A DNA stretch of 64,000 nt from positions 63,117 to 127,116 of IMG/VR virus record IMGVR_UViG_3300042261_001309. One strand, written 5' to 3'. Each line of letters starts with the position of its first letter. Within the stretch, counting starts at the first letter, position 1. Source of the stretch: a virus. The notes below the pieces were generated by a model that saw only the letters and a list, made by a program, of their open reading frames with translations, searched no databases and had not been told where the DNA came from. This document shows positions 46,174-63,308 of this stretch, piece after piece. The translations under genes were made by a program, and so were the position numbers.

Positions 46174-47571
46174 TTAATAATCCTGATGTAAACCTAACAA
46201 CGTAGGTGCCCTAAATGCCTTCGTCTTATCAAATTGTCCTTGGGCTCTAATTCTAGCAATACGGCCTAAATAAGATTCAGGGTCTGAAAACATATCCTGC
46301 CTAAGCTGATCCGATAAACCTGAGCCAACTCTTCCTACTTCTGCACCGTTAGGCTCAAGTGAGTAAGTAAAACCTCCTACACCGCGCCGATGATACTTTG
46401 AATCTTTAGCAGCTGGGAAAATATCTTTTACGTAAACGTCATGCTCATCGGTGAGCTTTAACTTGGTGGGCTTTTTATCTTCGTGGTGAATTACAACGCC
46501 TTCAGTGGTTAGTGGATGACGCCCACTCTGTATTCGCCGCAGCAGTTGTCGTGCATCCTCTTTTTTAGCTTCTTCTGGCAATTGGAACTTATCCTTTGGC
46601 AATAGGCTAAAAATAGTTTCAAGTACCTTTTTACGTTCTGCATAGGGCTGATCTTGCGTTTTACCTTTGTGCTTGGCGATGTCGAAAAGCATCGTCTTCA
46701 ATTCTACGTTTTGCTTCTTCTGCCTATCTAAACTGTTAGCAATGGTTGAATTTAATATACCTCCAAGCTCTTGCACTGGAATAGCTTTACCATTTCTCGT
46801 TCCAAATAGCTCACCTAGCAATACTGAGTCTTTATGCTCATTTAATTCGGGCATTTCCGGCCGACCTCCAAAAAATCTTTCCGTATGTACAATAGGATTA
46901 CCTGTTTCCTTTGACGTGCGGTGACTGAGTATTTCTGGCTTCTTGTTAGCTCTAAGCAATAGCTGAACTAGAGCACCATCCAGCTTAGGCTGTACTACGT
47001 CAGTGTCCTTTAAATTCTTAATCGCTGCGTCGATCTTTTCCGGTGGAATAGACGTGTAATGCTCCTTCTTAACTCCCGTAGCTGAAATACTATGTGGCCT
47101 TATTAGCATCCACCGATCGTTGTTCTTGATTAGCGCATAACGATTCTCAGGTTTATTATCGGCCGTAGTAAAATGAATTGCGTCAGGAGTTACTTTGGTT
47201 AATAACAGCTTACCTTTAGAATGCGTCTTAACTGTGCCTGCGCCATATACTCCTGGCGGCCCTATTTCACCTTCGAAATCCTTATACTTGTAACTGTGTG
47301 TGCTCTGGGGTGCTAATTCTGCTATACCGCCAGGCTCCAAGTTCTCCAACACATCTCTACGAGTTGCAAACGAATGTAGGCCTAAACCTTTTTTGCCCGC
47401 CCTTAAATCGAAATGCTTACCAGCTCTATGCGCATCGTGCTGCTGAATAACGTAATCAATTAATTCACCCGCCGATAATCCTTTATTCGGTGGATGCATT
47501 ATTTTGCGGCTAGGAATACCTTTAGCCTCTTCCTTGGCAGACTTCAAAAGTTGTTCAAACAGCGTGGTCAC
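46174..47571 (-). CDS. LigD-type 3'-phosphoesterase fused to an ATP-dependent DNA ligase
   Basis: PE domain 'YVIQQHDAHRAGKHFDLR...H..Y.DFEGEI...YGAGTV'; ligase motif I QPKLDG, GEL, FDI, EGVV and K.K; OB domain 'VGSGLSD...FRAP'. Confidence 0.85.
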   Translation of the reverse strand: MTTLFEQLLKSAKEEAKGIPSRKIMHPPNKGLSAGELIDYVIQQHDAHRAGKHFDLRAGKKGLGLHSFATRRDVLENLEPGGIAELAPQSTHSYKYKDFEGEIGPPGVYGAGTVKTHSKGKLLLTKVTPDAIHFTTADNKPENRYALIKNNDRWMLIRPHSISATGVKKEHYTSIPPEKIDAAIKNLKDTDVVQPKLDGALVQLLLRANKKPEILSHRTSKETGNPIVHTERFFGGRPEMPELNEHKDSVLLGELFGTRNGKAIPVQELGGILNSTIANSLDRQKKQNVELKTMLFDIAKHKGKTQDQPYAERKKVLETIFSLLPKDKFQLPEEAKKEDARQLLRRIQSGRHPLTTEGVVIHHEDKKPTKLKLTDEHDVYVKDIFPAAKDSKYHRRGVGGFTYSLEPNGAEVGRVGSGLSDQLRQDMFSDPESYLGRIARIRAQGQFDKTKAFRAPTLLGLHQDY

Positions 47572-47580
47572 TTATTAATT

Positions 47581-47609
47581 AGTTTAGCCTAAATTGGTGT
47601 TGAAGTGAA
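47581..47609 (-). promoter_or_regulatory. sigma70-like promoter upstream of the ligase gene
   Basis: TTCACT-N17-TAAACT, with the -10 box 9 nt before the GTG. Confidence 0.45.
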
Positions 47610-47611
47610 AT

Positions 47612-47654
47612 AAAAAGGGAGCCAGAAGAACAACAACCAAAACTTCTGGCTCCC
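47612..47654 (-). terminator. terminator after the methyltransferase operon
   Basis: GGGAGCCAGAAG/CTTCTGGCTCCC 12-bp stem followed by TTTTT on the minus strand. Confidence 0.8.
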
Positions 47655-47681
47655 CGGGACCCACCAACCAAACCTACTCCG

Positions 47682-48818
47682 CTACTGCGATGAAAAAACC
47701 GTAATCCGATCGTTGAACTTTACGTTCTCTCCGCTTTGCTTTTTGGACGACAAGTGTGACTTGCTGGTCTTGGTAAAATATTCTTTTTCAATGCGCAATC
47801 CGCTGTCCAAGCAGATCTGTGTCATGTCAGCTAACAAATTATATTTCTTGTAGCTGTCATTCATCACTAATATAAATCTACCGCCTGGAATCAATTTAGT
47901 CAAACAGTTCGCAACAGTTGGGCGCCAATATTTTTCCAACCAAGTAGAATACTCAGGAAATTGTGCGTAACATTGACCTGCGTCGTCGGCGTAGCATTCC
48001 AGATTAAAATAAGGTGGGCTGGACATCCACACGTCCACCTGTGGAATGCGTTCGTATGATTTTACATCTTCGCTACCGCCTTTGATGGTTAATCCTTCAG
48101 CTTCGTATAGGTTTAACATGTCCTGGCATTCAGGGGCAGTTAGAGGATCGATGCCGTAGTATTGAAAACCTAGTGAAGCAGCGCCTAACAAGCGAGCACC
48201 CCAGCCGGCAGAGAAATCACCAACTGTGCCACCTTTGGGACAATAGGTGGAGTATAAAAATTGAGCTAGGGGTATTTTAAATTGGCTGATGGATTTACTT
48301 AGACCAGAGCTACGGATACCTTGAATTAGCATATCGTTGGTCAGGCCAAACGCATACGGCCGTTCAGCTCCATCCTCGGACGAAGTGCACCAACCTAATC
48401 TATTCTTCAACACTTTACGCAACAATTCGTCGTTGTTGAACACTTCCAGCACTGACCTACCGTTCTCAGTTTTACTTCCGTAGAATTTAGCACCGTGAAA
48501 GTGCTTAACTATGTCCAAACCAATTGAACCTGAATTTTGCAATACGTTGTCATCACCTACTGTGCATGGAATATATTCTTTAAGTTTAGAATACGACTGC
48601 TGCAATTTAGTATCGCTAATCTTAGGATATGGAAAGCCGGCCAATCGAAAGTGGTCGAATAAATAGTCTACCAGCTTTTCACGCTCAGCTTCATTTAGGC
48701 TCCAGATATACTCGGCACTCAACTTGTTGCCTTTATAAACCAGCAGCTCCTTAGGTTTAACATTTATCAACCAAGGTGTAGCCGTAGTATTCTCCGCAGT
48801 GTAAGGTTTATTGTGCAT
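47682..48818 (-). CDS. amino (m6A/m4C) DNA methyltransferase-like protein
   Basis: SAM-binding motif I 'DFSAGWGARL' followed by catalytic motif IV 'SSPPYF.LE.Y'; 'L.PGG.F.L'. Confidence 0.75.
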   Translation of the reverse strand: MHNKPYTAENTTATPWLINVKPKELLVYKGNKLSAEYIWSLNEAEREKLVDYLFDHFRLAGFPYPKISDTKLQQSYSKLKEYIPCTVGDDNVLQNSGSIGLDIVKHFHGAKFYGSKTENGRSVLEVFNNDELLRKVLKNRLGWCTSSEDGAERPYAFGLTNDMLIQGIRSSGLSKSISQFKIPLAQFLYSTYCPKGGTVGDFSAGWGARLLGAASLGFQYYGIDPLTAPECQDMLNLYEAEGLTIKGGSEDVKSYERIPQVDVWMSSPPYFNLECYADDAGQCYAQFPEYSTWLEKYWRPTVANCLTKLIPGGRFILVMNDSYKKYNLLADMTQICLDSGLRIEKEYFTKTSKSHLSSKKQSGENVKFNDRITVFSSQ

Positions 48819-49575
48819 CGGTGCCGTTCTTTATAAATTTGCAAAAGTATGTGTCTGCCATCGCGCCCACCGGAAATTTCTGCTTATAGGCGAGTAAGGA
48901 GCCTTTGCTGCTTCCCCAGTTGATGTTGAAGGCAGTTTTAAGTTCTCGGTTGATAAGCTCAAACATCTTAAAATCACAGTATAGATTAAGGTTGCGCATA
49001 TCTGTGCGTGCCTTGCGGATGATATAATTATACTCTCCATTTACGTTCTCCTTGGACACAACAGCGTATCCGATTAATTGTTCACCTTGCCAATAGAACT
49101 GCGTCCACAGCTTATCCTGCTCACCTGCAAAGAACTGCTCGAAGAAGTTCATATCGTAACCTGAATGCAGTTGCCAACCGTATCTTTCCTTGCCTCTCAA
49201 GGTGTTCCACTCTTTGATAAACGCCAATATCTTAGGCAACTCAGCCGTATTAGTAATCGTCACCGATTTGTCGTAATGATTGCGCGTTTCACGTATTTCA
49301 CGCCAGGCCTTACCAGGCAGCTTAAACCAATCCGGTGTAAATACACTCGTTATGTTCGTCGACTTATAAGCACCATGTAAGCTATAACCGTCGATCTCAA
49401 TATCTTTACTAGGCGCGTAGTTTAAATTAACCTTCTCAAATAAATTATAAATCTCGTTGTCCACTGGCTGAAAAAACACAGCCTCCTTACTGTTCTTAAT
49501 GTAGCCCACCCAAGGCATAACCTTGTAGCGCTTGCTAACCATCCCCATAATCGCATGCTTCGTATTGTAACTCAT
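48808..49575 (-). CDS. GNAT-fold protein, DUF2156/Fem-like aminoacyltransferase-like
   Basis: 'LPGKAWREIRETRNHY', 'LIGYAV', 'IIRKA....NL..Y' and 'INWG....L..YK.KF.' resemble the DUF2156 C-terminal pattern. Confidence 0.5.
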   Translation of the reverse strand: MSYNTKHAIMGMVSKRYKVMPWVGYIKNSKEAVFFQPVDNEIYNLFEKVNLNYAPSKDIEIDGYSLHGAYKSTNITSVFTPDWFKLPGKAWREIRETRNHYDKSVTITNTAELPKILAFIKEWNTLRGKERYGWQLHSGYDMNFFEQFFAGEQDKLWTQFYWQGEQLIGYAVVSKENVNGEYNYIIRKARTDMRNLNLYCDFKMFELINRELKTAFNINWGSSKGSLLAYKQKFPVGAMADTYFCKFIKNGTDAQ

Positions 49576-49581
49576 GATTAT

Positions 49582-49731
49582 TTATTGTTGAGCTGCTTGC
49601 TTCTCGATCTGCGCCTTCAACTTCAAAAGCGCCTTGCTCTCTTTACCGCTGGGCATTCCCTTGGCAAAATCAAATTCCAACTGCTCCGCCTCATGGCGTT
49701 TCGTCTTTTTCATGTTCTTATTATTTTTCAT
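49582..49731 (-). CDS. small basic protein containing QLEFDF
   Basis: ATG at 49731 lies downstream of a TTGACA box (49765-49770); first gene of the GNAT/methyltransferase operon. Confidence 0.45.
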   Translation of the reverse strand: MKNNKNMKKTKRHEAEQLEFDFAKGMPSGKESKALLKLKAQIEKQAAQQ

Positions 49732-49766
49732 ACCGACATTGCAATATCGCACATAACTAAGGTTTG

Positions 49767-51137
49767 TCAAATTTCATAATCGTCTGAGGTTTTAAAGCGC
49801 TTGCGCTCGTGTACCTCTGCCCTCTTAGCGTCCCTATACATTTTCCGTACTTCCGCCTCTGCTACGATTTTAGCAAACTTCTGATACTTACGATCAAACC
49901 AATAATCTGTTTTTCCATAGAGCCAGTAAAAGAGCTTAATCATGTCTTCTTGTCTATGTAGCGAGATATAATAATTATTCTTTTTTGTCTCGTGGCAATA
50001 ACGCAAAGGATAAGGGGCAATTCCTAAAAATTGATTAAACTTATTCTGGAGCGTCGTTAAAAACTCGCGAGTTGATATAAATTTCACGCGCCGGTTTTTA
50101 CTGGTTAATGAAAAATAAACACAGCCATCACCATCCATGTTGCCTAGAATAAAACTAGAGACATACTCGTCAGGCACCGGAGGAAAAGTTATAATTAACG
50201 ATTTTCTGGCAGGCATACCGTAATCTGCCAATATCTTACACATATGCCGGCTATGTAATGCTATACCTGTTTGATCTTGCTTGGGACCGTCTTTAAAATG
50301 CGTAGTACGTATTGGACATGTTGTTTTAAGCTCTTTTGCGAAAAATTCAATAGCTGAACGATCCCCTGACTGCAAAGAGATAGATACTCTATCTATATCT
50401 TGGTGATTGCAACCATCCGCTGAAAATAAACCTAAAAGATACGCTTTATTATGCGAGTCAATTACGTCAAAGTAGTGTTCATCTGTTTTATACTTTAAGC
50501 CTGCCTCATGGCAAGATCGTCTTACGCAACCTTCTTTAATAAGTATGTTACGAATTACATGCTCCATTGTGTTACACTTGGTTGCTATCAGTCCAATATG
50601 CAACCGATCCTCGGTATACATCTTTACTATCTCTTCGTTGGTATACGGCAAATTACGCTCTTTAGGTTTACAGTAACAAATCAGGTTAGTAGGGCGTTTA
50701 GGAAAACCTAATCTTTTAGCAGTTGATCGTAGGCCACACCAAGTACGCGTAGGCCATTTCTTTAGTATGTCTTCAGTAGTAAGAGTGACATAGTCAATAG
50801 CTAGCTGCTTTAATTCTGCAGCTGAATAACAGTCTGTTCGATCTATCCACACCACATTATGTTTTTTTAATATGCGCTTCAATCGATTTAAACCTAGCGC
50901 ATACTTATTTAAAATGTCAACAAGCTGTAACGTTTGGTTATTATAATCAGCAATTATAGCCTGCTCGTCTATAACTTTAATCGGCTTCTTGCGCGAGCAA
51001 CCCAATTTTAAAGCTCTTAATTTTATAGATACCCAAGTTCGCTTATATTTATCACAAAAAAATTTACGAGTTAATGTATAGTCAGGATAGTCCAACTTTA
51101 AACTTTCGTCTTCTTCTACAGTCCAAATTCTTTTCAT
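49767..51137 (-). CDS. free-standing LAGLIDADG homing endonuclease with N-terminal HTH/Myb-like repeats
   Basis: Two motifs, AYLLGLFSADG and SFILGNMDGDG, plus 'RKYQKF'; N-terminal 'WTVEEDE.L' and repeated 'RTW..(I/L)...A..LG'. Confidence 0.85.
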   Translation of the reverse strand: MKRIWTVEEDESLKLDYPDYTLTRKFFCDKYKRTWVSIKLRALKLGCSRKKPIKVIDEQAIIADYNNQTLQLVDILNKYALGLNRLKRILKKHNVVWIDRTDCYSAAELKQLAIDYVTLTTEDILKKWPTRTWCGLRSTAKRLGFPKRPTNLICYCKPKERNLPYTNEEIVKMYTEDRLHIGLIATKCNTMEHVIRNILIKEGCVRRSCHEAGLKYKTDEHYFDVIDSHNKAYLLGLFSADGCNHQDIDRVSISLQSGDRSAIEFFAKELKTTCPIRTTHFKDGPKQDQTGIALHSRHMCKILADYGMPARKSLIITFPPVPDEYVSSFILGNMDGDGCVYFSLTSKNRRVKFISTREFLTTLQNKFNQFLGIAPYPLRYCHETKKNNYYISLHRQEDMIKLFYWLYGKTDYWFDRKYQKFAKIVAEAEVRKMYRDAKRAEVHERKRFKTSDDYEI

Positions 51138-51144
51138 TAATACC

Positions 51145-51173
51145 AACGTACAGCATAGTCATAACGTTGTCAA
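51145..51173 (-). promoter_or_regulatory. sigma70-like promoter of the homing endonuclease
   Basis: TTGACA-N17-TACGTT, with the ATG 7 nt downstream of the -10 box. Confidence 0.55.
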
Positions 51174-51186
51174 ATGTCTTTCGCAT

Positions 51187-51221
51187 AAAAACAAAAAACC
51201 CACAGAGTAATATCTGTGGGT
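51187..51221 (-). terminator. terminator after the major capsid gene
   Basis: ACCCACAGA/TCTGTGGGT stem followed by TTTTTGTTTTT on the minus strand. Confidence 0.75.
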
Positions 51222-51248
51222 CGTGTTAGAAATATTTAAATTAGTTGA

Positions 51249-52211
51249 TTAAATAAAGTCCACACGAGCGCAGCCGCGCACGTTGCCTAAACTCATACCA
51301 ATGTTTAAATAAATAAACCACTGCAGGAAATATGCCTCACTTTTAAGAAAAGTAGTCATATTTTGGAGGCGTAAATACTTACCAAAGAATTCCTCTGAGG
51401 AGAACAGATAAATAGTACCGTCTGGTACCAAATCCCGTTTGATGGTGAAGACTGACTTTACCCCGAAAATAGTCTGTGCAGGCTTACCTTCGAGATACAT
51501 ACGCTCTGAAAGATCGCCACCAGCTTCACTTCGTTCCAATTTAAGGAAGTCCATTGCGGTAACGTTATTCATTAGCATGCAGCCCTGTGACCCATCAGTA
51601 TTACCTTGCATCGGCCCAAAAGGCACCCGCATCTTCAGCATCACCTTAAAGGCATCTGCTACGTTCTGCCGGGTAATCCCACCAGGAATCTCAACCCACT
51701 GAGGAACCTGCAGAGAACCGCTAACCCAAGGATTAGCTGTATTCTTGGCACCAACAGCTTCATTTACCTTATTGATAAACTTAGTGTCGATTTCAGTTGC
51801 GATATCCTTGACCGCGTTTTCCATCATAATACCTCGGATATCGTAATCATACCCGCGCAGTCTGTCGATATCTTGGCTAAACTTAGGAGACATAATACGA
51901 TTAAAATATACCGGATAACGAGTACCCTTATATAGATAGCCGTCTGGAGCCATACCCAATGGAACAGTGACGGCGGGAGCTTGATCTGGCTCGCGATCGC
52001 ACCATTTCACTAGCAGTTCAGGATCTTCAGCTTTATTCAGCTCGTCATTGGCAATGTCAATGGGAGTCAGAATTTTCTCAGCAAAGCTTTCTTCACGAAG
52101 CTTATTGCGAGTAAACTGAGTAGCGGAAACAGCCGCTTCTTTGGTTTCGCCGGCTTTCACCATCTCGATGAAAGTGTCATTCATTGTGCGGATTTCAGAA
52201 ATTTTATCCAT
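51249..52211 (-). CDS. major capsid protein (HK97 fold, inferred)
   Basis: 320 aa, last in the protease-scaffold-decoration-capsid gene order, AAGGA ribosome-binding site and strong terminator. Spine-helix-like 'AVKDIATEIDTKFI', 'TIFGVKSVFT....VPDGTIY' and C-terminal 'N.RG.ARV'. Confidence 0.75.
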   Translation of the reverse strand: MDKISEIRTMNDTFIEMVKAGETKEAAVSATQFTRNKLREESFAEKILTPIDIANDELNKAEDPELLVKWCDREPDQAPAVTVPLGMAPDGYLYKGTRYPVYFNRIMSPKFSQDIDRLRGYDYDIRGIMMENAVKDIATEIDTKFINKVNEAVGAKNTANPWVSGSLQVPQWVEIPGGITRQNVADAFKVMLKMRVPFGPMQGNTDGSQGCMLMNNVTAMDFLKLERSEAGGDLSERMYLEGKPAQTIFGVKSVFTIKRDLVPDGTIYLFSSEEFFGKYLRLQNMTTFLKSEAYFLQWFIYLNIGMSLGNVRGCARVDFI

Positions 52212-52234
52212 ATTGTGATTTTCCTTTCAGTCGA

Positions 52235-52810
52235 TTAGGCGCCTACTGCAACTGCACCAGTAGAAATCAATTTGATTTCAGCAAAAGTTGCGGTTTGGAA
52301 TCCAGGTTTCACACTAGTCGTGGTGACAGATGTACCGGCGACGTTAGTCCAAGTCTGGGAAACTTCAGAGTCAGAAGAGCGAGCAATAGGCAATGTGCGA
52401 GTACCCATCAAATAACCCACTAGTGAATTATTCGAGCTATCGGTAGTAAACTTACCTAAACTACCAGCGGTAGTGCCAGCGGAATAAGCATATACTGGCA
52501 TACCAACACTAGCCCAACCAGCAGAAGCAGCTGTAAGAATTTGATCCGTTTCAATTACACCGCCATCTAGGAGCAGCACAGGTAATTTGCCGGATTCTTT
52601 TACGTCTCCTGAGGTAGAATCGCTTAACGCAACTCCGACTACATAGGTATACGTACTGCCATAAGCGGCTGAACCACTAGGTCCAACCAAACCACCAGCT
52701 GTGGATGCCACAGCCATACCGGCCTTCACATCTGCCAGAGAGGACTGAAGCGCAAACGCTTTGTCCACCTGTTGCAAGGTAAGGCCATTTCCTTTTTTGA
52801 TATTGATCAT
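52235..52810 (-). CDS. capsid decoration/cement protein
   Basis: Small Gly/Ala/Thr-rich protein directly upstream of the capsid gene; beta-tulip-like 'AGMAV...VVGVAL...G..VY....G.FT....LVG'. Confidence 0.55.
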   Translation of the reverse strand: MINIKKGNGLTLQQVDKAFALQSSLADVKAGMAVASTAGGLVGPSGSAAYGSTYTYVVGVALSDSTSGDVKESGKLPVLLLDGGVIETDQILTAASAGWASVGMPVYAYSAGTTAGSLGKFTTDSSNNSLVGYLMGTRTLPIARSSDSEVSQTWTNVAGTSVTTTSVKPGFQTATFAEIKLISTGAVAVGA

Positions 52811-52833
52811 ATCTATTAACCTTTATTTAATTG

Positions 52834-53268: not shown

Positions 53269-53392
53269 AGTCTTCCTTCCATTCAGCTAGCTTGGTTAAA
53301 TACTGCAACACGTCTTGTTGCTCTTCAAAATTCAAAAGAGACAAGGCATCTGCTGCTTGCTTCTGCAGTAAATTTTCAGATGCCTTGTCCAT
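53234..53392 (-). CDS. small ORF not in the ORF track (52 aa)
   Basis: Manual translation MDKASENLLQKQAADALSLLNFEEQQDVLQYLTKLAEWKEDCGRRFIIAESC. Fills the gap after the scaffold gene and contains KQA and KLA. Confidence 0.45.
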   Translation of the reverse strand: MDKASENLLQKQAADALSLLNFEEQQDVLQYLTKLAEWKEDCGRRFIIAESC

Positions 53393-53399
53393 GAAGGGT

Positions 53400-54512
53400 T
53401 TAACCTTTTTGATTCAGAATCTCGTTCTTCATCGTGTCCACAACCATACGGGCGGTGGCTTGAGACCAGGCAGCATATTTAGCTTGTTCCTGCTCTTCAA
53501 ACAAACGAGCGTTCAGTTGGGCTTCTTTTTCAGCTAGCTGCTGCTTCAGCGCTTCCACTTCAGGATTAACAGAAGCGGTCTTGGTCGACTGGACTTCAGA
53601 GAGCTTTTTAATCTGCTCTGCTTGCTCTGCGAACTTTTGTTCAAGTTTGGCTTGATTTAGCAGCGTGGTAAAAGCCATCTTACCGTTCATCTCAGCCTGC
53701 TTGACAATCTGCCGATTCTCACTGGCCTGCTTCTGCTGCTGAGCCTTAGTAGCCTGAAGCTGCTCAGAAGCTTGAGCGATCATCTGCTCAAAGTCCTGTT
53801 TACCGGCTTCTTTAGCCATCTGTAGATCTTGCGCTTGAGACTGCTTGAAAATAGTCTCAGCCCACAGTTTGCCTAGTTCATAGGAAGCGATCCGATCGGT
53901 TTCCTCTGCGGACTTGCCAGGAATACAAGGAGCGGTTTCGCAAGTAGGCTGCTGCACACCAGTAGTCTGGGGCTTAACCTTATCAGCACCAACAGCGTTC
54001 TTATCCGAGGTATCATGCTTGGCACTTACCTGAACAGGATGCGTGTCTTTGCCAGGAGCGCCAACAACTTCAGGTTTAGCGGCTTCCTTGTAATTGGAAA
54101 TCATGTCGATTAGCTCTTTGCCCAGCTTCTCAACTGAAGGATGCACTTCAGCCGTCTTGGTTTCGGCAGCCATCTTAGCCTTTAGCTCGTCTAGCTCTTT
54201 AAGAGCGGCGGCTAGCTTGGCTTGAGTATCGTCCTGTACGTTGGCGGTAACTTCGACTTCAGCTTCATCAGCTTTCTTACCTGGAACAGTAGGAGCGGTT
54301 TCGCTGGTGGGCTGCTGTACACCGGTAGTCTGAGGTTTAACCTTATCGGCACCAACAGCGTTCTGATCTACAGTTTCATGCTTAGGACTCACTTGTACTG
54401 GATGGGTATCTTTGCCAGGGGCGCCAGAAGCGACTGGTTTGGCTGCGGCTTCTTTTTCTACCATAGCTTTGATATTCTCTAAAATTTTATTTGATTCGTT
54501 CAACTTAGCCAT
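53400..54512 (-). CDS. prohead scaffold/core protein
   Basis: Charged coiled coil rich in Q/E/K/A, with an internal duplication and many K-x-A motifs; located between the protease and capsid genes. Confidence 0.6.
   Translation of the reverse strand: MAKLNESNKILENIKAMVEKEAAAKPVASGAPGKDTHPVQVSPKHETVDQNAVGADKVKPQTTGVQQPTSETAPTVPGKKADEAEVEVTANVQDDTQAKLAAALKELDELKAKMAAETKTAEVHPSVEKLGKELIDMISNYKEAAKPEVVGAPGKDTHPVQVSAKHDTSDKNAVGADKVKPQTTGVQQPTCETAPCIPGKSAEETDRIASYELGKLWAETIFKQSQAQDLQMAKEAGKQDFEQMIAQASEQLQATKAQQQKQASENRQIVKQAEMNGKMAFTTLLNQAKLEQKFAEQAEQIKKLSEVQSTKTASVNPEVEALKQQLAEKEAQLNARLFEEQEQAKYAAWSQATARMVVDTMKNEILNQKG
53905..54455 (-). repeat. two copies of an approximately 58-aa internal repeat in the scaffold
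   Basis: GAPGKDTHPVQVS.KH...D.NAVGADKVKPQTTGVQQPT.ETAP..PGK.A occurs twice (about 54270-54455 and 53905-54090). Confidence 0.9.
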
Positions 54513-54541
54513 ATTAAAAGAGTTTAAGGGTTAATGTATTA

Positions 54542-55217: not shown

Positions 55218-55230
55218 AACTTATAACTGT

Positions 55231-55998
55231 TTAAATAATCTTACTTGAGGCCGCTGCTCCAGCTCCTAATCCTGCCGTGGCAGTTAAATAGGTTAAAAAT
55301 GCCGCGAGCAATCCAGCTTTGTTTTTAAATTTTAAACTCTTAGAAAGATTGGACACCGGCGAATTAATAAACCTATTAGCTAATTGCGAAGCTCTAAGTT
55401 CATTAAGCAATGTAGGTGCACCTATAGCCGCCCCAATACCTGCGCCAGTTAATGCTGCAGATTCAGGCGAATCAGTTTTCTTACCGACTATATAACTGAT
55501 GAACGGATTCGCAAACATCAAACCTCGATTAACTTTGCCTAAGTTAAATCGCTGCAATTTATTAAAGAAACCTGGAGTCGCCTCTTGCGCAGCATGCCCA
55601 AATTCATGAGCAGTAAACGATGTCGCAGGTAATTCGTTATTGTAATAAATCACCCCTCGCTTCATCTTTTCTATATCATTCTTACTATATAGTATCTTAC
55701 CATACAGATCAGGTAATTTAGTTTTAGGCGGTGCGTACCTCTCAGTTACGTTTTCAAAAGAATCTGTAGCCGTCACTGGATTAACATTAAAAAACTTCTT
55801 TAAGCGATTTAAGTAATCTTCAGAGCCTGAATTTAAGCCATGCGCACGTTCAGCAGCACTTATATCTGTCTTGAACTTTTTCGTTAACTACACAGCAACA
55901 GGATTAGCTGCGAGGCCTAACGCAGTATAACCTAACGCCGGTGCGCTAAATTGGGTTGTATCTTCGGCTACTTTGAATAGTGCATTTTTTAAATTCAC
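55231..55998 (-). pseudogene. Zn-metallopeptidase-like membrane protein interrupted by one in-frame TAG (55888-55890)
   Basis: From the GTG at 55998 (2 nt after the protease stop): MNLKNALFKVAE...PVAV*LTKKF..., in frame with ORF 55231..55776, which has HEFGH, a downstream E (NELRAS) and hydrophobic Gly-rich helices. Confidence 0.6.
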
Positions 55999-56000
55999 GT

Positions 56001-57395
56001 TCATCGATTCTGAATTAACGCGTTGTATAACAAAATATCGTCAGCGCTACCGTTGGAGTCTAAATATTCCAATTGAGCCAATTTATAACTAGTGTATGCC
56101 TCTGCCAGTTTTTCAAAATTATATTCAGCTGACTTTTTCTCGTTGGTCTCTTCCTTTTTAACTTCAGGCTTACCAAATGAAGAAATAGTGATACTGATAA
56201 CTCTACGAGTAGAAGGCTCGCCAAATAATGAATTACTTTCAGTTAATCTGGATACCAATGATTTAAGTTCCTTAGGCAAAAAGTCCAAAGCAGCAGGCGT
56301 ATACTTCTCGTCGTGTAATACCTCTTCGTTGCCTTTTTCTTCAGCCTTCGAAAACGTACCCGATAAATGCTTCTTCATTCCTTTGGCCATCTGAGGATCT
56401 GCCTTGTCTCCAAAAGCATAACGAATAAATTCCTCAGGGCTAAAAATAATACCTTTATCTGCCGTAGCCTTAAATACCTTGGCTGGCTCATGCTTCCTAA
56501 GTTCATCCATATCCGTAGTGGTGATCTTAGGTGACTTATTTAAATGCTCAGCCTGACGCTTAATAAAATCAGTCTTCTTGGATTTACCAATACCGTCCAG
56601 ATGCTTTTCCATTTCAGAAAGCTTTTTCAGTAGCCTGCGCTTGTCTGCGGCTTTCTTGGATAAAGTTAAAGTGTCATTTTCTTCACTGTAAAACCCTGGA
56701 TACATTTCCAGATAATCCTGAGTGGTGCGATATTTATGCGAAGCTTCTTTAACCGTAGAAGAATTTAACGAATGCCCAATTCTATCTGCCGGTCTACCTA
56801 CCACCGAAATTTCAAACCAAGTAGGATCTACATTTTGCATCGCACACATTTCACCTTGCTTGTTCAATTCACCTAGCTTGGAAGGTATGTGCTCGCATCT
56901 ACTACGATCGTCTTTCGCTAGGTGATGACAAAAAGTACACTTGTCGTGTGGAACCCGACATGCCATGCTTACCTGTATCTGCTTTCCACTTGCCAGCTTC
57001 TCAAGAGCTTCTTTATTTCTAGGATTATCGTTATCCAAGCCCATGATCAACTCAATCCGCTTCATCGCTTCGTTGTAAGCTGAAGCTTTGATATTGCCAA
57101 ACTTAGGATCAGTAGGTTTATTCTTGTGATTATAATGAACAGCTCTATTTGCCTGCTTAAATGTTTGATGCCTTTCGCGACAATCCTTTTCCATAAACGA
57201 ATCGCCGTTACGATTTGCCCCATAACCTTCCTGTGCCCCTAACGCAATGACATGCACATCTGTTTGATGCGCTGTTTTCTCATACTGCAGCTGCGCTTTT
57301 ACTGAACCTCGTTTAGTTAATTGCTTATCGTCAGTAACAATAGTCACTGGCTCTACGTCACAATTAAAATCGTCGGTAGATGAAAACTTAATCAT
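56001..57395 (-). CDS. prohead maturation protease
   Basis: 'NRNGDSF', His motif 'VHYNH', Ser motif 'QVSMAC', Zn-binding C..C...C.H and 'FEISVV..PAD' match HK97/assemblin-like prohead proteases; long C-terminal extension. Confidence 0.8.
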   Translation of the reverse strand: MIKFSSTDDFNCDVEPVTIVTDDKQLTKRGSVKAQLQYEKTAHQTDVHVIALGAQEGYGANRNGDSFMEKDCRERHQTFKQANRAVHYNHKNKPTDPKFGNIKASAYNEAMKRIELIMGLDNDNPRNKEALEKLASGKQIQVSMACRVPHDKCTFCHHLAKDDRSRCEHIPSKLGELNKQGEMCAMQNVDPTWFEISVVGRPADRIGHSLNSSTVKEASHKYRTTQDYLEMYPGFYSEENDTLTLSKKAADKRRLLKKLSEMEKHLDGIGKSKKTDFIKRQAEHLNKSPKITTTDMDELRKHEPAKVFKATADKGIIFSPEEFIRYAFGDKADPQMAKGMKKHLSGTFSKAEEKGNEEVLHDEKYTPAALDFLPKELKSLVSRLTESNSLFGEPSTRRVISITISSFGKPEVKKEETNEKKSAEYNFEKLAEAYTSYKLAQLEYLDSNGSADDILLYNALIQNR

Positions 57396-58360
57396 TTTTT
57401 TGGATAAACTTGATTTAACGTATCGTACAATACTTCATCCGCACTGCGGCTGTTGGTTGAAAATAACCGATTGCGTAATAACCAATCAGCTAAATACGCG
57501 GCGGCGCCAACTTTACCACCACGAGCTACCCTATTTTTTAAAACTTTACCCATTGTTGGAGCTTTGACCGCTTTTTCTGCGTGCTCAAAAAATCGCGTAG
57601 CTATTGGGTCTTTCACGTTATCTTTTAACTTAGCTAATATATCCAACCTATCGGCCGGATTCATACGATTTAAAAACGCTTTAACCGCTTGAGACGTATT
57701 CGCATCGTATAACCCTTGAGTACCAGCCATAGCTTGCAGCTTATTAAGATTCTTCAATTCAGCTAAACCAGCATGACGGCCATACTGCTTCTGAAGCTTC
57801 GCTAAATCAGCAAAACCAACTTGTTTGCCAAGCAATTGCTGAAGATCGTTCAGATTGCCTATGCCTACTTGAGTAGCTGTGCCTAGCCCGCCTTTAGGTG
57901 CATTAACTGCTGCTTCAAACGCAGCTAAAGCCTTACGATTAGCCGGCATCCAATTGGTCAACCATTTAAGTGGTCCTGTACCAACTGCAGCCGCAGTGCC
58001 TAGAGCTAGCGGATAGCTAGCCGCACCACGCACAGTATTTACTGCTTTTGCTGCCGGAACTACCACGCCAGACATGAGCTTGGCGCCAACACCAGGGGCT
58101 GGTGCGGCAACACCAAAAATGCCTAATTCTTTTACTTTATTTACTAGGTCCGAAACTACACCTTTTTGCGCATAGTTACTTCCCAATGCGCCGCCAGCTA
58201 GTCCTCCAAGTAAACTGCCTTGAGCTAGCTGACTTAAAAACCTTCGTCGACGATCACCGGCCGATTCATTTGGCTGCCGACCCGATCCGGCTAAACTTAA
58301 ACCTAACCCACCAATACCGGCGCCGGTTAATGCACCAATTAATTCTGGAGATAATGGCAT
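57392..58360 (-). CDS. glycine-zipper membrane-type protein, putative ejection/internal protein
   Basis: GALTGAGIGGLGL and GSLLGGLAGGALG repeats plus further hydrophobic helices; located in the head cluster. Confidence 0.5.
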   Translation of the reverse strand: MPLSPELIGALTGAGIGGLGLSLAGSGRQPNESAGDRRRRFLSQLAQGSLLGGLAGGALGSNYAQKGVVSDLVNKVKELGIFGVAAPAPGVGAKLMSGVVVPAAKAVNTVRGAASYPLALGTAAAVGTGPLKWLTNWMPANRKALAAFEAAVNAPKGGLGTATQVGIGNLNDLQQLLGKQVGFADLAKLQKQYGRHAGLAELKNLNKLQAMAGTQGLYDANTSQAVKAFLNRMNPADRLDILAKLKDNVKDPIATRFFEHAEKAVKAPTMGKVLKNRVARGGKVGAAAYLADWLLRNRLFSTNSRSADEVLYDTLNQVYPKK

Positions 58361-58364
58361 ATGC

Positions 58365-59690: not shown

Positions 59691-59703
59691 ATTAACTCGT
59701 TAT

Positions 59704-61062
59704 TTACTTAATTGGATTGGCAGGTGACCCAATGCCTTCGCGCAGCAGCTTTTGTTTTGAAAAGTCAGTGTCAGTATCAATTAACTGTTTAGCATCAAAG
59801 GGTGACAATGCTTGACCAGCTGTCCTAGCTCGCAACTCGCTGCGCACTACTTCTTTTTCTTTGGACAACTCAGGAGCGACACGCAAAAACTGCTGATAAG
59901 CATCAACAATCTGTTTGGGATCCAAGCCAGATAAAACAGGGTCAGTTACAATCAGTTCCTGCAACATAAGCTTACGCTCAAGATTGTCAGAAGGTGAAGC
60001 AGAAGGAAGCATACTCTTTGGTGCGCCTTCAGCCGTAACAGTATTTTGTACTGTGCTAACAAGGCCATCAAGAATACCAGCACTCTTTTCCCACGCTGCT
60101 TCAAAGCCAATCTTCAATTTAGCTCGTTCCCATACCGGATCTACAAACTTAGGTTCTGCCACAACCTTTTCTTCCGCTTGCTTTTCGGCTGGCGCAGGTT
60201 CAACTTGATCTAAACTCTCACCAATCGTCTTGCGCAAATCAGTTACACCAGTCAGGTATTCCTCCATCTTGGCTTTCTTTTCAAGAACCACGGCGTTGGT
60301 TTTATTCCATTCGCTGGCATGCTTTAGAAACTTATTAAAAGTAAGCACTTCCTGGCACTCGTCAAAAAAGCGATATTTGTCGTCATGTACACCGCGCTTT
60401 TCTTTCAACCCGGCAGTCTTATGAATAAAGTCCAAATAAGGCAAAGCCCGATCTTTGTGTAAAGCGTAAGCTTGGGATTCAAACTCTTCGAAAGGCGTAC
60501 GATAGGCGGCTTCTTTCTTAAAATGCCCAACCAAGGACATCAAAGAATTGTACATCTTATCCTGTGCGTCATGCTGGGCTACTTTGGCGTTTAGCAATTC
60601 CTGTTCAAAGTCAATTCGGCTATTTTCGAAGTCGTCCCACCGGCTTTGCAATGAACGCGTATTTTCCAGATTATACTGCGCTTCTTTTTTTAGCTGCACA
60701 TAGGCTGCCTTAATGTTGGTGCGAGTAGAAAATTTATTAAAGTCAGGGATATCTTCATACATATCCACACTGACATGCTGGCTGGCCTTCTTGGTTGAGG
60801 TATCTTCCAAAAATAAGTCAGACGCAACTTTAGCCGCGTCAACAATTGGAAAATCAGCATCTTTGGCATCTGGATTATTTTTGAAGTGATTGTATGTGAG
60901 GGCTACGTTTATCACTTCCGAGGCACGTTTAATAAGATGCGTATTTAAATTCATCTCTTCGGCAATCTTGGTCACCGCTTCCTGCGGGGCTAGTTTTTCC
61001 TTATTGATGACAGAAGTAATACGCTCAACTGCCTGTTTCAGAATTTTTTCGGGAGCTTTCAT
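59704..61062 (-). CDS. K-x-A-rich head-region protein
   Basis: 452 aa, helical, with roughly 15 K-x-A motifs. Confidence 0.6.
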   Translation of the reverse strand: MKAPEKILKQAVERITSVINKEKLAPQEAVTKIAEEMNLNTHLIKRASEVINVALTYNHFKNNPDAKDADFPIVDAAKVASDLFLEDTSTKKASQHVSVDMYEDIPDFNKFSTRTNIKAAYVQLKKEAQYNLENTRSLQSRWDDFENSRIDFEQELLNAKVAQHDAQDKMYNSLMSLVGHFKKEAAYRTPFEEFESQAYALHKDRALPYLDFIHKTAGLKEKRGVHDDKYRFFDECQEVLTFNKFLKHASEWNKTNAVVLEKKAKMEEYLTGVTDLRKTIGESLDQVEPAPAEKQAEEKVVAEPKFVDPVWERAKLKIGFEAAWEKSAGILDGLVSTVQNTVTAEGAPKSMLPSASPSDNLERKLMLQELIVTDPVLSGLDPKQIVDAYQQFLRVAPELSKEKEVVRSELRARTAGQALSPFDAKQLIDTDTDFSKQKLLREGIGSPANPIK

Positions 61063-61081
61063 GTGTTGATATTCTTAAACT

Positions 61082-61110
61082 ATTTTAGCGAGTTAACACA
61101 ATCGAATCAA
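61082..61110 (-). promoter_or_regulatory. sigma70-like promoter
   Basis: TTGATT-N17-TAAAAT, followed by TTAAGAATA as in the sheath promoter. Confidence 0.55.
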
Positions 61111-61111
61111 A

Positions 61112-62173
61112 CTATTGTTGCGCTTCTGTATTTAACTCGTAAAACGGTTTAAAAGTGGGATTGGCATCTTTATGGCTTAATTCATTAACGGTGGCCTTGA
61201 GTAGCTTTAAATCTTCGTCCAATGGATCGTTCACGTTGCCTACGTTGATTTCCCGCTTAAGCTTCTCAACGTGCAATTCCATTAATTTCTGTTCCTGCTG
61301 CTTTACCTTAAGCTCTTCCCTTTGTACATTTAAACGAGCCAGATCACTAATAATGCGATTATACACAATAGCATCTTTATGCGACCTGGTAGAAAATTGA
61401 ATATTGAAAGTATTAACTAAAGCCGACTTGGCTAGGAAATCTGTTACTTGTGTGCGCTCGTCATCGTCTAAATCGAATCCACATACCTGGGCCTTAAGAC
61501 CTAAGGCACCTAAATCAAAAACTCGTTTATACAGCGAAAATTCATCCTGCTTAATATCTCCATTATTTGTCAGCTGTACCAGTAAAGCCCAACGAGCGAC
61601 TTTATCTTTGGGGAAATAATCAAAGTCGAAAAATATATAGTGTAAGGCCTGAATGGTTTTTATGGGCAACTTCCACTTAACCGCAATCTTACTATCCGGT
61701 TCTCCCGCAAATATCTGATAACCAATAAACCGCTTTATCTGCCCGTAGCTTTCATTTATATGCAATTGAATGGCGGCCGCGATATACGGGTTAGGCTCAA
61801 TATTGAACACATGCTTAATTAATCGCTTAAGCCACTTGTCGTTCAGGCCTTTCAGCTTTTTAACATTCCAGTTAACGAAATTAGTATACTCGGAAATATT
61901 CTCTACCCTTACCCGATTGCCTATACGTGACTTCCAAATCTTATTGGCTATTACAGCTAAATTATCCGGTAGTGTATTAAACACCTTCGGATACTTAATT
62001 ACCGTATAATCCAATCCTTTGGAAATTACCCTGGTCAGGTTATTTGCGTTATCCTCTTTTCGACTTCGATAATCCTTAAAATTAAACTTTTCAGGATTTT
62101 TAATCGCCTCGTATCGCCAAGCCGGATTTTGAAATGGCGTGCCTATTTTTTGATTTGGAACTTGAGCTGTCAC
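61112..62173 (-). CDS. hypothetical protein with a possible HTH and a C-terminal coiled coil
   Basis: 'DSKIAVKWKLPIKTIQ..H..FFD' is HTH-like; function unknown. Confidence 0.5.
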   Translation of the reverse strand: MTAQVPNQKIGTPFQNPAWRYEAIKNPEKFNFKDYRSRKEDNANNLTRVISKGLDYTVIKYPKVFNTLPDNLAVIANKIWKSRIGNRVRVENISEYTNFVNWNVKKLKGLNDKWLKRLIKHVFNIEPNPYIAAAIQLHINESYGQIKRFIGYQIFAGEPDSKIAVKWKLPIKTIQALHYIFFDFDYFPKDKVARWALLVQLTNNGDIKQDEFSLYKRVFDLGALGLKAQVCGFDLDDDERTQVTDFLAKSALVNTFNIQFSTRSHKDAIVYNRIISDLARLNVQREELKVKQQEQKLMELHVEKLKREINVGNVNDPLDEDLKLLKATVNELSHKDANPTFKPFYELNTEAQQ

Positions 62174-62179
62174 AACTAG

Positions 62180-62207
62180 AAAGGCCTAAGAAAGATATCT
62201 TAGGCCT
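62180..62207 (-). terminator. hairpin/terminator
   Basis: AGGCCTAAGA/TCTTAGGCCT 10-bp stem with a short T-tract. Confidence 0.5.
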
Positions 62208-62231
62208 GCAAAAACTTACATGTATTTATTC

Positions 62232-63308
62232 TTAGGCCATGCCTTGAGGCATTGGCGGGGCACCTGAAGCTTCTCCAGCCTCTTCACCGTGGTCAGCTTG
62301 AAACGCCTGAATCAATGCCGCTAGCTCTTGGGGATCAATTTGCTGATCTGCGCCTTGAGATGGCGCCTGTACACCTTGAGGAAGCCCACCACCTTTTTGA
62401 ATTTCAGCTAGGAGCAGTTCAATAAGCCGGGCTTCGTCTTCTTCAGACATCTGCTCGTTTTGACCTTCTGCTGATTCTTCAGGCATTCCTGGAGGAGTAC
62501 CTTGAGGGCCAGGACCACCTTGAGCTAGTGCATCCATAGGGCCGGCAGCTTTAAACAATTCGCCAGCTTCTTTTTGAGATAGCCCAGCATTTTTGGCCTC
62601 TTTGCAAAAACCGTTGAAAAAAGCCAACTTATAAATAGATTCTTGATTTAACATATTTTCTGAACTTTGTTTCTCTTTTTTATCTTCTTGTTTTTTAGGT
62701 CCGTCAATTAAACGTTTCGCACCACGATATCCACCGTAAGCAGCAGCAGTCGCAGCTGCAACGTTTAGCGGATTTACATGATGATCCCGTGAGCCGGGAT
62801 TTAGCATATTTTCTTTAAGCTTTTTAGCTAGCTCTGGCAACGTATCTGCGCTTGCACTTTGTTTAAAAAGGTTTGGAGTAGTCATCCTATCGTAACCCTC
62901 ATTAAGCAAACCTAAAGCGCCTAATCCACCTCCAGCTGCCGCAGTACCCTTTAAAGCTGTACCCGGAGTCATTTGTGCTTTTTCTAAAGCTGGAATTTTT
63001 ATACCTTTCGATGCTAAATACGCATATAGTTTTTCAGCGCCAGGTACGGCTTTAGGTGTCTTTAAATACTCGCCTGCAGCTGAAAGTCTAGGATTTACAG
63101 CATCGCTTACGGCCTTTTTTGATTTTGTTAAAAGTGCTAAAAGACGAGGCAACAAGCCATCCATGATGGTGCCTTTCCCTTTGCTTAAAAATGCACCAAA
63201 TCCAGCCTCTTTTTTGTTTAACTCAACAGCACCGCCAGCTTCAACTTTCTTTTTCTTTAAAGCATCTAGCTTGGCTTTAGTATCCTGTGGGTTGTTATAA
63301 AATGCCAT
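62232..63308 (-). CDS. modular K-x-A-segmented head-region protein
   Basis: Segments separated by KEA, KQS, KLA and KAA; Gly/Ala hydrophobic stretches; acidic Pro/Gln-rich C-terminus. Confidence 0.55.
   Translation of the reverse strand: MAFYNNPQDTKAKLDALKKKKVEAGGAVELNKKEAGFGAFLSKGKGTIMDGLLPRLLALLTKSKKAVSDAVNPRLSAAGEYLKTPKAVPGAEKLYAYLASKGIKIPALEKAQMTPGTALKGTAAAGGGLGALGLLNEGYDRMTTPNLFKQSASADTLPELAKKLKENMLNPGSRDHHVNPLNVAAATAAAYGGYRGAKRLIDGPKKQEDKKEKQSSENMLNQESIYKLAFFNGFCKEAKNAGLSQKEAGELFKAAGPMDALAQGGPGPQGTPPGMPEESAEGQNEQMSEEDEARLIELLLAEIQKGGGLPQGVQAPSQGADQQIDPQELAALIQAFQADHGEEAGEASGAPPMPQGMA

Follow-up and report, generated by a model that had tools for sequence, protein, structure and literature searches.

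That short motifs direct head maturation is firmly established in T4-like and phiKZ-like phages. T4 gp21 cuts at L/I-x-Glu sites, phiKZ gp175 and SPN3US gp245 cut at A/S/G-x-Glu sites, and the internal proteins of T4 bear a capsid targeting sequence; to our knowledge, every enzyme studied in T4- and phiKZ-like head maturation cuts after Glu. Herpesvirus assemblin (MEROPS S21) acts at release and maturation sites. For the T4, phiKZ and SPN3US proteases the available part of PMC5694885 describes x-x-Glu motifs, many cuts per substrate and self-processing, together with multiple processing, a CTS and C-terminal autoprocessing, whilst assemblins cut after Ala, with the PrV sites YLQA-T and VQA-S, according to the available part of PMC4498786.

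Here we describe a head module in an uncultured phage with a genome of 127,116 bp and 156 ORFs; the module lies within the window, a 64,000-nt stretch of this genome. A first-pass annotation had proposed that the protease encoded at 56001 cuts head proteins after K-x-A and that leaders ending in this motif route cargo into the head. Searches for DNA-level similarity to known phages gave no match. Neither PHROG nor Pfam assigned a family to 13600, 52834, 53400, 54846, 57392, 58365, 59704, 61112, 62232 or 63358, and no portal gene was identified.

Enrichment of K-x-A in head proteins

In the composition-controlled test suggested with the first-pass annotation, where the expectation for each protein came from 2000 shuffles preserving its composition, K-x-A was enriched in exactly six of the 156 ORFs (67 seen vs 20.9 expected). 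These were 13600, 52834, 53400, 54542, 56001 and 59704 (Table 1), each with p ≤ 0.0035 and together holding the six lowest p values of the genome. The remaining 150 ORFs showed no enrichment (178 vs 184.5 expected), so that the excess in the six head-assembly proteins is real, beyond chance, and restricted to head proteins. A seventh protein named as motif-dense, 62232, stood at 7 vs 5.4 (p = 0.29), and the motif said to separate the two modules of 54846 was at chance level there (2 vs 2.2). The contrast claimed with the sheath and baseplate proteins was borne out, there being no excess in the sheath protein 40671 (1 vs 3.35 expected) or in the tail block overall (39 vs 40.6).

When the head module was defined by position alone (14 ORFs), K-x-A ranked first of 1488 gapped residue pairs with z = 5.69, whereas its z was -0.3 for the tail block and 0.1 for the remaining genes, and it also headed a second gapped-pair list (z = 11.55). 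Among pairs with a one-residue gap, none of the x-x-Glu kind stood out in either list; the sole Glu-ending pair among the matches listed was K-x-x-x-E (z = 4.87, second list), which has a different spacing.

Table 1. Position of the features discussed and, for the enriched proteins, K-x-A counts against shuffled sequences.
Feature	Position (nt)	Strand	K-x-A, observed vs shuffled	Basis or detail
K-x-A-rich protein, 350 aa	13600..14652	-	13 vs 3.0	outside head module
LigD-like 3'-phosphoesterase and ATP-dependent DNA ligase, 465 aa	46174..47571	-		PHROG 114; Pfam PF13298, PF01068
Ligase N-terminal stretch, 12 residues, candidate cleavable leader	47536-47571	-		ends L-L-K-S-A
Major capsid protein, 320 aa	51249..52211	-		
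Candidate propeptide site K24-E-A26 (capsid)	52134-52142	-		conserved columns
K-x-A-rich head protein, 144 aa	52834..53268	-	7 vs 1.9	
Scaffold-like protein, 370 aa	53400..54512	-	16 vs 6.4	
K-x-A-rich protein, 84 aa	54542..54796	-	5 vs 0.7	
Zn-metallopeptidase-like gene	55231..56004	-		HEFGH; N-terminus MNVNLKNALFKVA
Predicted prohead (capsid-maturation) serine protease, 464 aa	56001..57395	-	10 vs 4.0	model, homologues
K216-E-A218, then Ser (56001), candidate release (autocleavage) site	56742..56750	-		directly after protease domain
K28-R-G30 (56001)	57306..57314	-		place of family N-terminal K-x-A site
Head protein, 452 aa	59704..61062	-	16 vs 4.7	

The predicted protease and its flanking sites

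The 56001 protein is laid out as a protease domain (residues ~44-204), a disordered linker (205-242) and a helical C-terminal domain (247-463). Pfam gave no family for it at E ≤ 0.1, no PDB sequence match was found, and matches in PHROG were weak and to families not annotated as protease. Its AF2 model (pLDDT 85.6) found T4 gp21 as the best PDB match (5jbl, prob 1.00, TM(target) 0.60), and the top three matches were all gp21 chains (TM(target) 0.59-0.60, E 5e-3 to 1e-2); gp21 was the best match among solved structures, with no assemblin chain among the best 50 PDB matches listed. A search of BFVD gave 84 matches at E ≤ 0.001; many carry the name prohead protease, and they include gp19 of Bacillus phage G. 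H90 and S143, the candidate catalytic His and Ser, are invariant in an alignment of 91 sequences, as are D65 and D151, and the candidate catalytic Ser is followed by a Cys/His insertion in which C153, C156 and C167 are conserved. The protease gene lies upstream in the head module, followed by the scaffold-like gene 53400 and the capsid gene 51249, and this order is the same in Salmonella phage Arash, Vibrio phage D69 and the IMG/VR loci. On this model 56001 appears as a prohead protease of the T4 gp21/assemblin-type fold.

In the aligned family, near-invariant K-x-A sites flank the predicted catalytic domain. The column of K216-E-A218 holds K-x-A in 97% of the 91 sequences and falls within a segment of pLDDT<50, the disordered linker of the model. 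At the K28 column the motif is present in 96%, with K28 invariant and Ala in 90% or more; in this phage's own protease Gly replaces Ala. K-x-A was also enriched within the folded catalytic domain of the family (341 vs 104) and within predicted helices, and cutting at such places would need unfolding.

Capsid, scaffold and other candidate substrates

The TKEA noticed near the capsid N-terminus was confirmed at residues 23-26. Its K and A columns are kept in 7/7 sequences, and in a set of 27 the motif occupies the same columns in 26 and is shifted by one in the 27th. The capsid model has a helix at 2-19, a break at 20-22 and a helix at 23-41; K24-E-A26 starts a predicted helix rather than lying in a loop, and its invariance could be structural.

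The scaffold-like protein contains two 74-residue repeats (residues 12-85 and 133-206; nt 54258-54479 and 53895-54116) that are 69% identical, each bracketed by K-x-A as first described, and its orthologues are enriched (20 vs 6.5, 22 vs 8.1 and 16 vs 5.2) with several sites in common alignment columns. Orthologues of 52834, whose N-terminus MDVDLLLQKVA closes with the motif, are likewise enriched and their sites align. Every K-x-A of 59704 falls between residues 1 and 328, and none occurs in the conserved stretch of 124 residues at its C-terminus; two orthologues gave 13 vs 5.3 and 16 vs 5.3, and Arash gp220, a weak match, 10 vs 3.0. Homologues of 13600 in three related records (15 vs 2.4, 11 vs 3.0 and 12 vs 2.4) make this protein a candidate for a further protease substrate or an internal head protein. 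If every K-x-A were cut, no fragment of four of these proteins would exceed 59 residues. The enriched proteins also have a high content of K, A and E and are for the most part helical.

Conservation in relatives

Enrichment was kept in Arash and D69 (~30% identical) and in six IMG/VR relatives. Across 39 dereplicated loci the observed/expected ratio reached 3.1 in the protease gene and 2.3-2.9 in the three genes that follow, and stood at 0.93 eight genes further downstream; a second, capsid-based IMG/VR scan added one locus. Among 92 homologues of 56001 that are mutually <50% identical we counted 1100 K-x-A vs 331 expected, with z > 2 in 89, bearing in mind that homologue sets are phylogenetically related and such counts are not independent events. 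The protease family comprises 2468 representative clusters at E ≤ 0.001. For the most part it stems from uncultured phages whose genomes measure 100-235 kb, and by these counts K-x-A enrichment is a conserved trait of a very large family of uncultured phages.

The first-pass annotation had also proposed checking the conservation of motif positions. In orthologue alignments the K and A of the motif were kept at 48%, vs 33% for other K, 37% for other A and 30% for the middle residue, whilst in the protease orthologue group they were no better kept than other K and A (K: 0.40 vs 0.50).

Alternative readings of the motif

It is very improbable that the enrichment has no function of its own and follows from composition, a bias towards helical or coiled-coil sequence, internal repeats or a signal in the DNA; the controls contradict this reading. 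The composition and helicity of the enriched proteins and the internal duplication in 53400 speak for it, but the shuffles preserve composition, and no i+3, i+4 or i+7 pair came near the level of K-x-A in the gapped-pair scans. At the DNA level AAR-NNN-GCN occurred 67 times in frame vs 5 and 3 times off frame, with codons mixed, which places the signal at the protein level, and the excess survives ~30% identity and differing G+C contents among relatives. The same pair scan of T4 gp67, gp68, gp21 and gp22 is a positive control: it recovered the true cleavage motif, I-x-E and L-x-E ranking 1 and 2 of 605 pairs, whereas K-x-A ranked 32nd and its signal is missing from these T4 scaffold proteins. 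I-x-E/L-x-E is the known gp21 cleavage motif of T4.

Recognition of the motif could also be assigned to the product of the Zn-metallopeptidase-like gene instead of 56001. This gene carries HEFGH, has a borderline match to Pfam Zn_peptidase_2 (26.8 bits vs a cut-off of 27) and sits in the head module with its ATG overlapping the TGA of the protease (ATGA), but it has no homologue in five related records or in the Arash, D69 and IMG/VR loci, where enrichment persists, and in a set of 5.8 billion proteins it matches itself alone. Its own K-x-A count is 0 vs 2.0. The leader attributed to it reads MNVNLKNALFKVA. The gene is interrupted at codon 39 by an in-frame TAG (nt 55888-55890), which separates this leader from the ORF of the Zn-peptidase (55231-55776); the 64-kb window contains no tRNA genes, suppressors included. 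The gene is an accessory and not the conserved protease, and its claim on the motif is close to refuted. A stronger competitor, which we nevertheless think unlikely, is that K-x-A is bound and not cut, as a docking or assembly motif contacting the capsid interior, the portal or the helical domain of the protease, or as a target of lysine modification or cross-linking. Enrichment and conservation attest selection on the motif rather than its proteolysis, many of the sites fall in helices of the models, and the nearly invariant capsid K24 and A26 resemble a structural contact. Set against docking are the domain-flanking sites, placed in a disordered linker much like established sites of autocleavage, the pattern at i, i+2 and i+4, suggestive of strand-like binding, ligase leaders that end in the motif where leaderless homologues begin, and the identical statistical signature given by the true T4 cleavage motif.

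A putative cutting code

Residue preferences around K-x-A were found at P5, P3 and P1 (i, i+2, i+4), a periodicity that fits an extended strand in a protease groove and not a helix face. Ser was the residue most enriched after the motif, at 49/175 sites vs 12.1 in relatives and 10/67 vs 4.0 in the window. Taking sequence and model together, we consider it probable that 56001 is a capsid-maturation serine protease with K-x-A as its recognition signal, by which scaffold and core proteins are chopped and the capsid N-terminus is trimmed. The recognition role is supported by comparative evidence, though not proven: the gp21/assemblin-type model, the co-travel of motif and protease family, the domain-flanking sites, the mark at the capsid N-terminus and the predicted scaffold fragments of ≤ 59 residues all point to it. 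Of the original proposal that 56001 cuts after K-x-A, this part stands on comparison, whilst placing the scissile bond directly after Ala is an argument by analogy; cutting at the motif, and the set of proteins retained in mature heads, we infer. In the available part of PMC10585845 the virion proteomics of Arash used standard search settings and no processing is reported.

In the scheme we propose, a protease of the T4 gp21/herpesvirus-assemblin fold with a Cys/His insertion would read hydrophobic-x-Lys-x-Ala and, next to it, Ser, Ala or Glu, P3 being Lys and P1 Ala. Within the assembled prohead the enzyme would release itself at the sites bordering its catalytic domain; it would then reduce 53400, 52834, 54542, most of 59704 and probably 13600 to peptides of ~60 residues or fewer, able to exit the shell, and finally remove ~26 residues from the capsid protein N-terminus.

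Candidate leaders and cargo

The single K-x-A of the ligase (1 vs 3.2 expected) does end a 12-residue N-terminal stretch, as claimed for its leader. Among ligase homologues with a 10-60 aa N-terminal extension, K-x-A lies at the extension end in 10/18 vs 1.8 expected, and the end of the motif coincides with the start point of leaderless homologues. None of 80 IMG/VR loci has a ligase gene near the protease, and it is found in the head module only in relatives' loci L005-L007.

Genome-wide, an N-terminal excess was weak. K-x-A occurred in the first 30 residues of 26/156 ORFs vs 21.2 +/- 4.1 expected, which is not significant, and the extended motif ending by residue 14 was seen 7 times vs 3.3 (p = 0.05). 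A histogram of N-terminal positions separated no leader class, its 'other' set still including head genes. The N-terminal motifs of 44018 and 44691, considered as leaders, were each kept in 0/4 orthologues and are treated as chance. The claim of a readable cargo inventory draws comparative support from the ligase homologues, but not from the genome-wide count or from these two genes. We offer only tentatively, as a doubtful extension, that the ligase with its L-L-K-S-A leader is head cargo, which would enter the prohead, undergo trimming by the protease and be co-injected with the DNA as an end-repair and ligation enzyme ready at entry, and that hydrophobic-x-K-x-A leaders mark injected proteins readable from sequence across the family. 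If so, the injected ligase may seal, circularise or repair the incoming genome.

Comparison with known systems

We found no published K-x-A rule in the literature searched, the coverage of which was limited. If the rule holds, mature protein termini would become predictable from sequence in thousands of metagenomic phages, and disposable scaffold head proteins, possibly also packaged enzymes, could be read in the same way; the cultured relatives, Salmonella phage Arash and the Vibrio phage D69 group, make it directly testable.

Bacillus phage G gp19 and Gordonia phage Pupper gp94 are sequence homologues of 56001 residues ~54-222 as well as structural matches. K-x-A counts were 8 vs 2.4 (p = 0.003) in phage G gp19, 7 vs 2.9 in phage G gp21 and 15 vs 8.3 in Pupper gp94, a much weaker signal than in this phage, and the phage G capsid protein is without any K-x-A. 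Phage G gp19 is named a head maturation protease, with no cleavage motif given, in the available part of PMC12484599.

The 56001 protein resembles T4 gp21 in its modelled fold and in the position of its gene in the head module by the scaffold and capsid genes. It differs from gp21 in falling in no Pfam or PHROG protease family, in its 10% identity in the structural alignment, and in carrying the Cys/His insertion and a helical C-terminal domain of 220 residues. As in T4, phiKZ and SPN3US, a two-position (P3, P1) motif is overrepresented in the protease as well as in proteins of the core and scaffold, with a candidate capsid N-terminal site and sites flanking the protease itself; unlike theirs, the motif is Lys-x-Ala and not x-x-Glu, pointing to a different specificity. 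Leader-dependent targeting of the T4 type is here no more than a possibility raised by the candidate leaders. With herpesvirus assemblin the system shares a putative P1 Ala with P3 specified, Ser enriched after Ala, and a protease joined to an assembly domain at its C-terminal side, a site lying between the two, but P3 is Lys here vs hydrophobic or Gln there, and a head module holds dozens of sites vs two or a few. The same motif-coded logic of head maturation appears to operate under another code, in which P3 is Lys and P1 is Ala and which stands nearer to that of herpesvirus assemblin.

K-x-A enrichment in the head module

Occurrences of K-x-A (lysine, any residue, alanine) were counted in each of the 156 ORFs called over the whole genome, here named by window start coordinate, with the expectation for each ORF taken from shuffles of that same protein. 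The six lowest p-values belonged to 13600, 52834, 53400 (scaffold-like), 54542, 56001 (the predicted prohead protease) and 59704, which together carry 67 sites vs 20.9 expected, whilst the remaining 150 ORFs carry 178 vs 184.5. The density of the motif in head proteins, noticed by eye in the first-pass annotation, therefore withstood this composition-controlled test in six of the named proteins and not in the seventh, 62232, which lies at composition, as does 54846, where K-x-A had been thought to separate two modules. The reported scarcity in the sheath was borne out (see table).

Table. Features of the window, with K-x-A counts and shuffle expectations
Feature	Window position	Strand	K-x-A	Expected
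13600		minus	13	3.0
Sheath (40671)		minus	1	3.35
Ligase (46174)	46174-47571	minus	1	3.2
ORFs 47682, 48808, 49767	47682-51146	minus
Major capsid protein (51249)	51249-52211	minus
52235, head module	52235-52810	minus	0	1.1
52834		minus	7	1.9
Scaffold-like protein (53400)		minus	16	6.4
54542		minus	5	0.7
54846		minus	2	2.2
55231, head module	55231-55776	minus	0	2.0
Zn-metallopeptidase-like gene	55231-56004	minus
In-frame TAG of that gene	55888-55890	minus
Predicted prohead protease (56001)		minus	10	4.0
57392, head module	57392-58360	minus	0	3.7
59704		minus	16	4.7
62232		minus	7	5.4
63358, head module	63358-63972	minus	0	1.5

A motif-blind set was made up of 51249 and every ORF beyond it as far as the window end, 14 in all; in it a scan of every residue pair at gaps of 0-4 placed K-x-A first of 1488 pairs (z = 5.7). 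The same pair had z = -0.3 in the tail block and z = 0.1 over the remaining genome; within the six enriched proteins, a set picked by the motif itself, z reached 11.6. At the DNA level AAR-NNN-GCN is found 67 times in the coding frame vs 5 and 3 in the two others, with both Lys and all four Ala codons in use, which places the signal in the protein. As a control, the identical pair scan was run on T4 gp67, gp68, gp21 and gp22 (record NC_000866), where I-x-E ranked first (z = 4.1) and L-x-E second (z = 3.8) of 605 pairs and K-x-A was 32nd. The T4 gp21 cleavage motif is L/I-x-E, as the first-pass annotation had cited, so the method recovers it, and the control shows that K-x-A is no general property of scaffold proteins. 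Four head-module proteins (57392, 55231, 52235 and 63358) have no K-x-A at all, with about 8.4 sites expected in sum; this was noticed post hoc and may reflect avoidance where a protein must outlast the protease.

Conservation of the signal in relatives

The capsid protein has only distant relatives, in Salmonella phage Arash and three D69-group Vibrio phages (27-29% identity), and a nucleotide search of known phages with the window gave no match. The protease homologue, gp222 in Arash, and three head neighbours are K-x-A-enriched both in Arash (e.g. 10 vs 3.0, 8 vs 3.0 and 7 vs 1.8) and in D69 (e.g. 11 vs 3.9, 10 vs 2.9 and 6 vs 1.5), and their polymerase, helicase and tail genes show no enrichment. 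Six IMG/VR relatives with capsids 56-66% identical have enriched orthologues of 53400, 52834 and 59704 together with one further enriched protein, and enrichment is absent from everything downstream of their capsid gene; three related records hold 13600 homologues, with 15 vs 2.4, 11 vs 3.0 and 12 vs 2.4 sites. Scanning IMG/VR with the protease alignment yielded 80 loci, 77 with a protease ORF, of which 39 were left after dropping proteases at least 70% identical. Across these 39, observed/expected K-x-A was 3.1 in the protease gene, 2.4, 2.9 and 2.3 in the next three genes, about 2 in genes two to five upstream of the protease and 0.93 in the gene eight positions downstream.

Conservation of motif positions, proposed as a check, was found in part. 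Many sites are column-matched in alignments, with the middle residue free to vary, and others turn over; per comparison, motif K and motif A were each conserved at 48%, vs 33% for other K, 37% for other A and 30% for the middle residue, but in the protease group motif K and A had no extra conservation over other K and A. The bracketing of the scaffold repeats was confirmed, both of the 74-residue repeats of 53400 (69% identical) having K-x-A on either side, an arrangement kept in relatives. Likewise, the site near the capsid N-terminus is real: K24 and A26 (window numbering) are present in 7/7 sequences and in 26/27 down to 29% identity, the exception being shifted by one residue; in the Arash capsid protein, gp226, the site reads V-K-E-A. 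In the capsid model (pLDDT 84.3) residues 2-19 form a helix, the chain breaks at 20-22 and another helix starts at 23; it is plausible that the protease would remove the first predicted helix.

The 56001 protease

The protease belongs to no Pfam family and has only weak PHROG matches, and over residues 47-222 it matches gp19 of Bacillus phage G and gp94 of Gordonia phage Pupper, the latter annotated as a capsid maturation protease. One search gave a family of 738 proteins, and an exhaustive one gave 2468 representative clusters (E<=0.001). An AlphaFold model built from 90 homologues chosen for normal length (pLDDT 85.6) has a mixed domain (44-204), a disordered stretch (205-242) and a helical domain (247-463); H90 and S143 are invariant in the same alignment. 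Its best solved-structure matches were three T4 gp21 chains (prob 1.00, TM by target 0.59-0.60, E 5e-3 to 1e-2), that search returning nothing else credible, and 84 BFVD models match at E<=0.001, many named prohead protease. Many family members are about 400 residues longer, with an insertion at the catalytic Ser-Met-Ala-Cys and in some a second near residue 45 (L008:2903-5515 in a related locus; database proteins such as P0122 and P0130, about 830-880 aa). One of these, P0001, has a Pfam intein-splicing domain, so the active site of the family seems to be an intein target.

Among 150 representatives listed, the 92 homologues of length 430-512 hold 1100 K-x-A vs 331 expected, with z > 2 in 89/92; a closer set holds 1350 vs 513 (115/120 proteins). 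Two sites are near-universal in 91 sequences, one before the protease domain (96%; K-R-G in the window phage) and the other just past it (97%; K216-E-A218-S, in the disordered linker). The K-x-A enrichment is a genuine, specific and ancient signal, linked to a gp21-like protease.

The most likely reading of the motif, which we consider probable, is that it directs cleavage, Lys occupying P3 and Ala P1. Of 175 sites in relatives, 95 have L, M, F or I at P5 (about 29 expected), E or V is favoured at P4, and P1' holds S at 49 sites (12.1 expected), A at 30 and E at 28; the 67 window sites show the same trends. Judged from sequence, these i, i+2, i+4 preferences would fit a strand held in the groove of a protease better than a single helix face. 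In the likely substrates, in-silico cutting at every site leaves longest pieces of 59 residues in 53400, 50 in 13600, 28 in 52834 and 24 in 54542; the last 124 residues of 59704, which are conserved, stay intact, as do protease residues 250-422.

Leaders and candidate cargo

The first-pass annotation also held that short leaders ending in K-x-A direct enzymes into the head. Genome-wide, 26/156 ORFs have K-x-A in their first 30 residues vs 21.2 +/- 4.1 expected, and the extended motif ends within the first 14 residues in 7 ORFs vs 3.3 (p = 0.05) and within the first 20 in 11 vs 5.0 (p = 0.015); the N-terminal K-x-A of 44018 and 44691 is not conserved. The claim fares better for the ligase, a LigD-type 3'-phosphoesterase domain (PF13298) fused to an ATP-dependent ligase domain (PF01068). 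Among 120 proteins listed, the window's own included, 91 allowed a conserved G-[IL]-P anchor to be placed. K-x-A is rare before the anchor in the 59 homologues with 0-9 residues there (3 vs 1.0 expected), and occurs in the extension of 10/18 proteins with 10-60 residues (vs 1.8), the window's ligase among the 10, at 1-17 residues before the anchor and with a hydrophobic P5 in 9/10, as read by eye from the listed sequences. In three relatives' loci (L005-L007) the ligase gene directly follows the protease gene. This extension pattern is the best evidence for a candidate cleavable leader, not for packaging, and a cargo inventory readable from such leaders is a possibility, less likely than not. 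The window's ligase gene sits within the late structural block.

The second leader named, that of a peptidase, belongs to a Zn-metallopeptidase-like gene (HEFGH), whose product was rejected as the conserved protease because a search found no homologues. The ATG of this gene overlaps the protease stop (ATGA) and codon 39 is a single in-frame TAG, which could mean read-through or a pseudogene, or else a sequencing error or a pair of distinct ORFs; a scan of the window found no tRNA genes.

Genome setting

The window covers bases 63117-127116, the second half of one 127,116-bp virus record, and its minus strand carries a contractile-tail structural block and the head module. Between the ligase and capsid genes lie 47682, 48808 and 49767, which have the look of non-structural or mobile genes inserted within the structural block; 49767 shares partial similarity with capsid-adjoining ORFs in L005 and L008. 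Outside the window, a plus-strand ORF of 5445 residues (G000:C1:23946-40283, locus L015) adjoins a protein of 209 aa that matches tail-fibre PHROGs and may encode a giant fibre or virion protein. The N-terminus of 63358 has tandem P-V-P-S-V-A-Q-V-A-[EK] copies with matching DNA repeats at the record end, so the contig may break within a repeat there.

Comparison with known systems

Within the limited coverage of our literature search no paper giving a K-x-A rule was found. The T4, phiKZ and SPN3US proteases cut C-terminal to Glu, according to excerpts of PMC5694885. Bacillus phage G keeps a weak K-x-A signal (gp19 8 vs 2.4, phage G gp21 7 vs 2.9). The sites flanking the 56001 domain mirror the C-terminal autoprocessing of the phiKZ and SPN3US proteases and the autocleavages suggested for T4 gp21 in the same excerpts (PMC5694885), as well as the assemblin release site described in part of PMC4498786. 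The probable Lys-P3/Ala-P1 code would be a new specificity in a kind of system that is already known.
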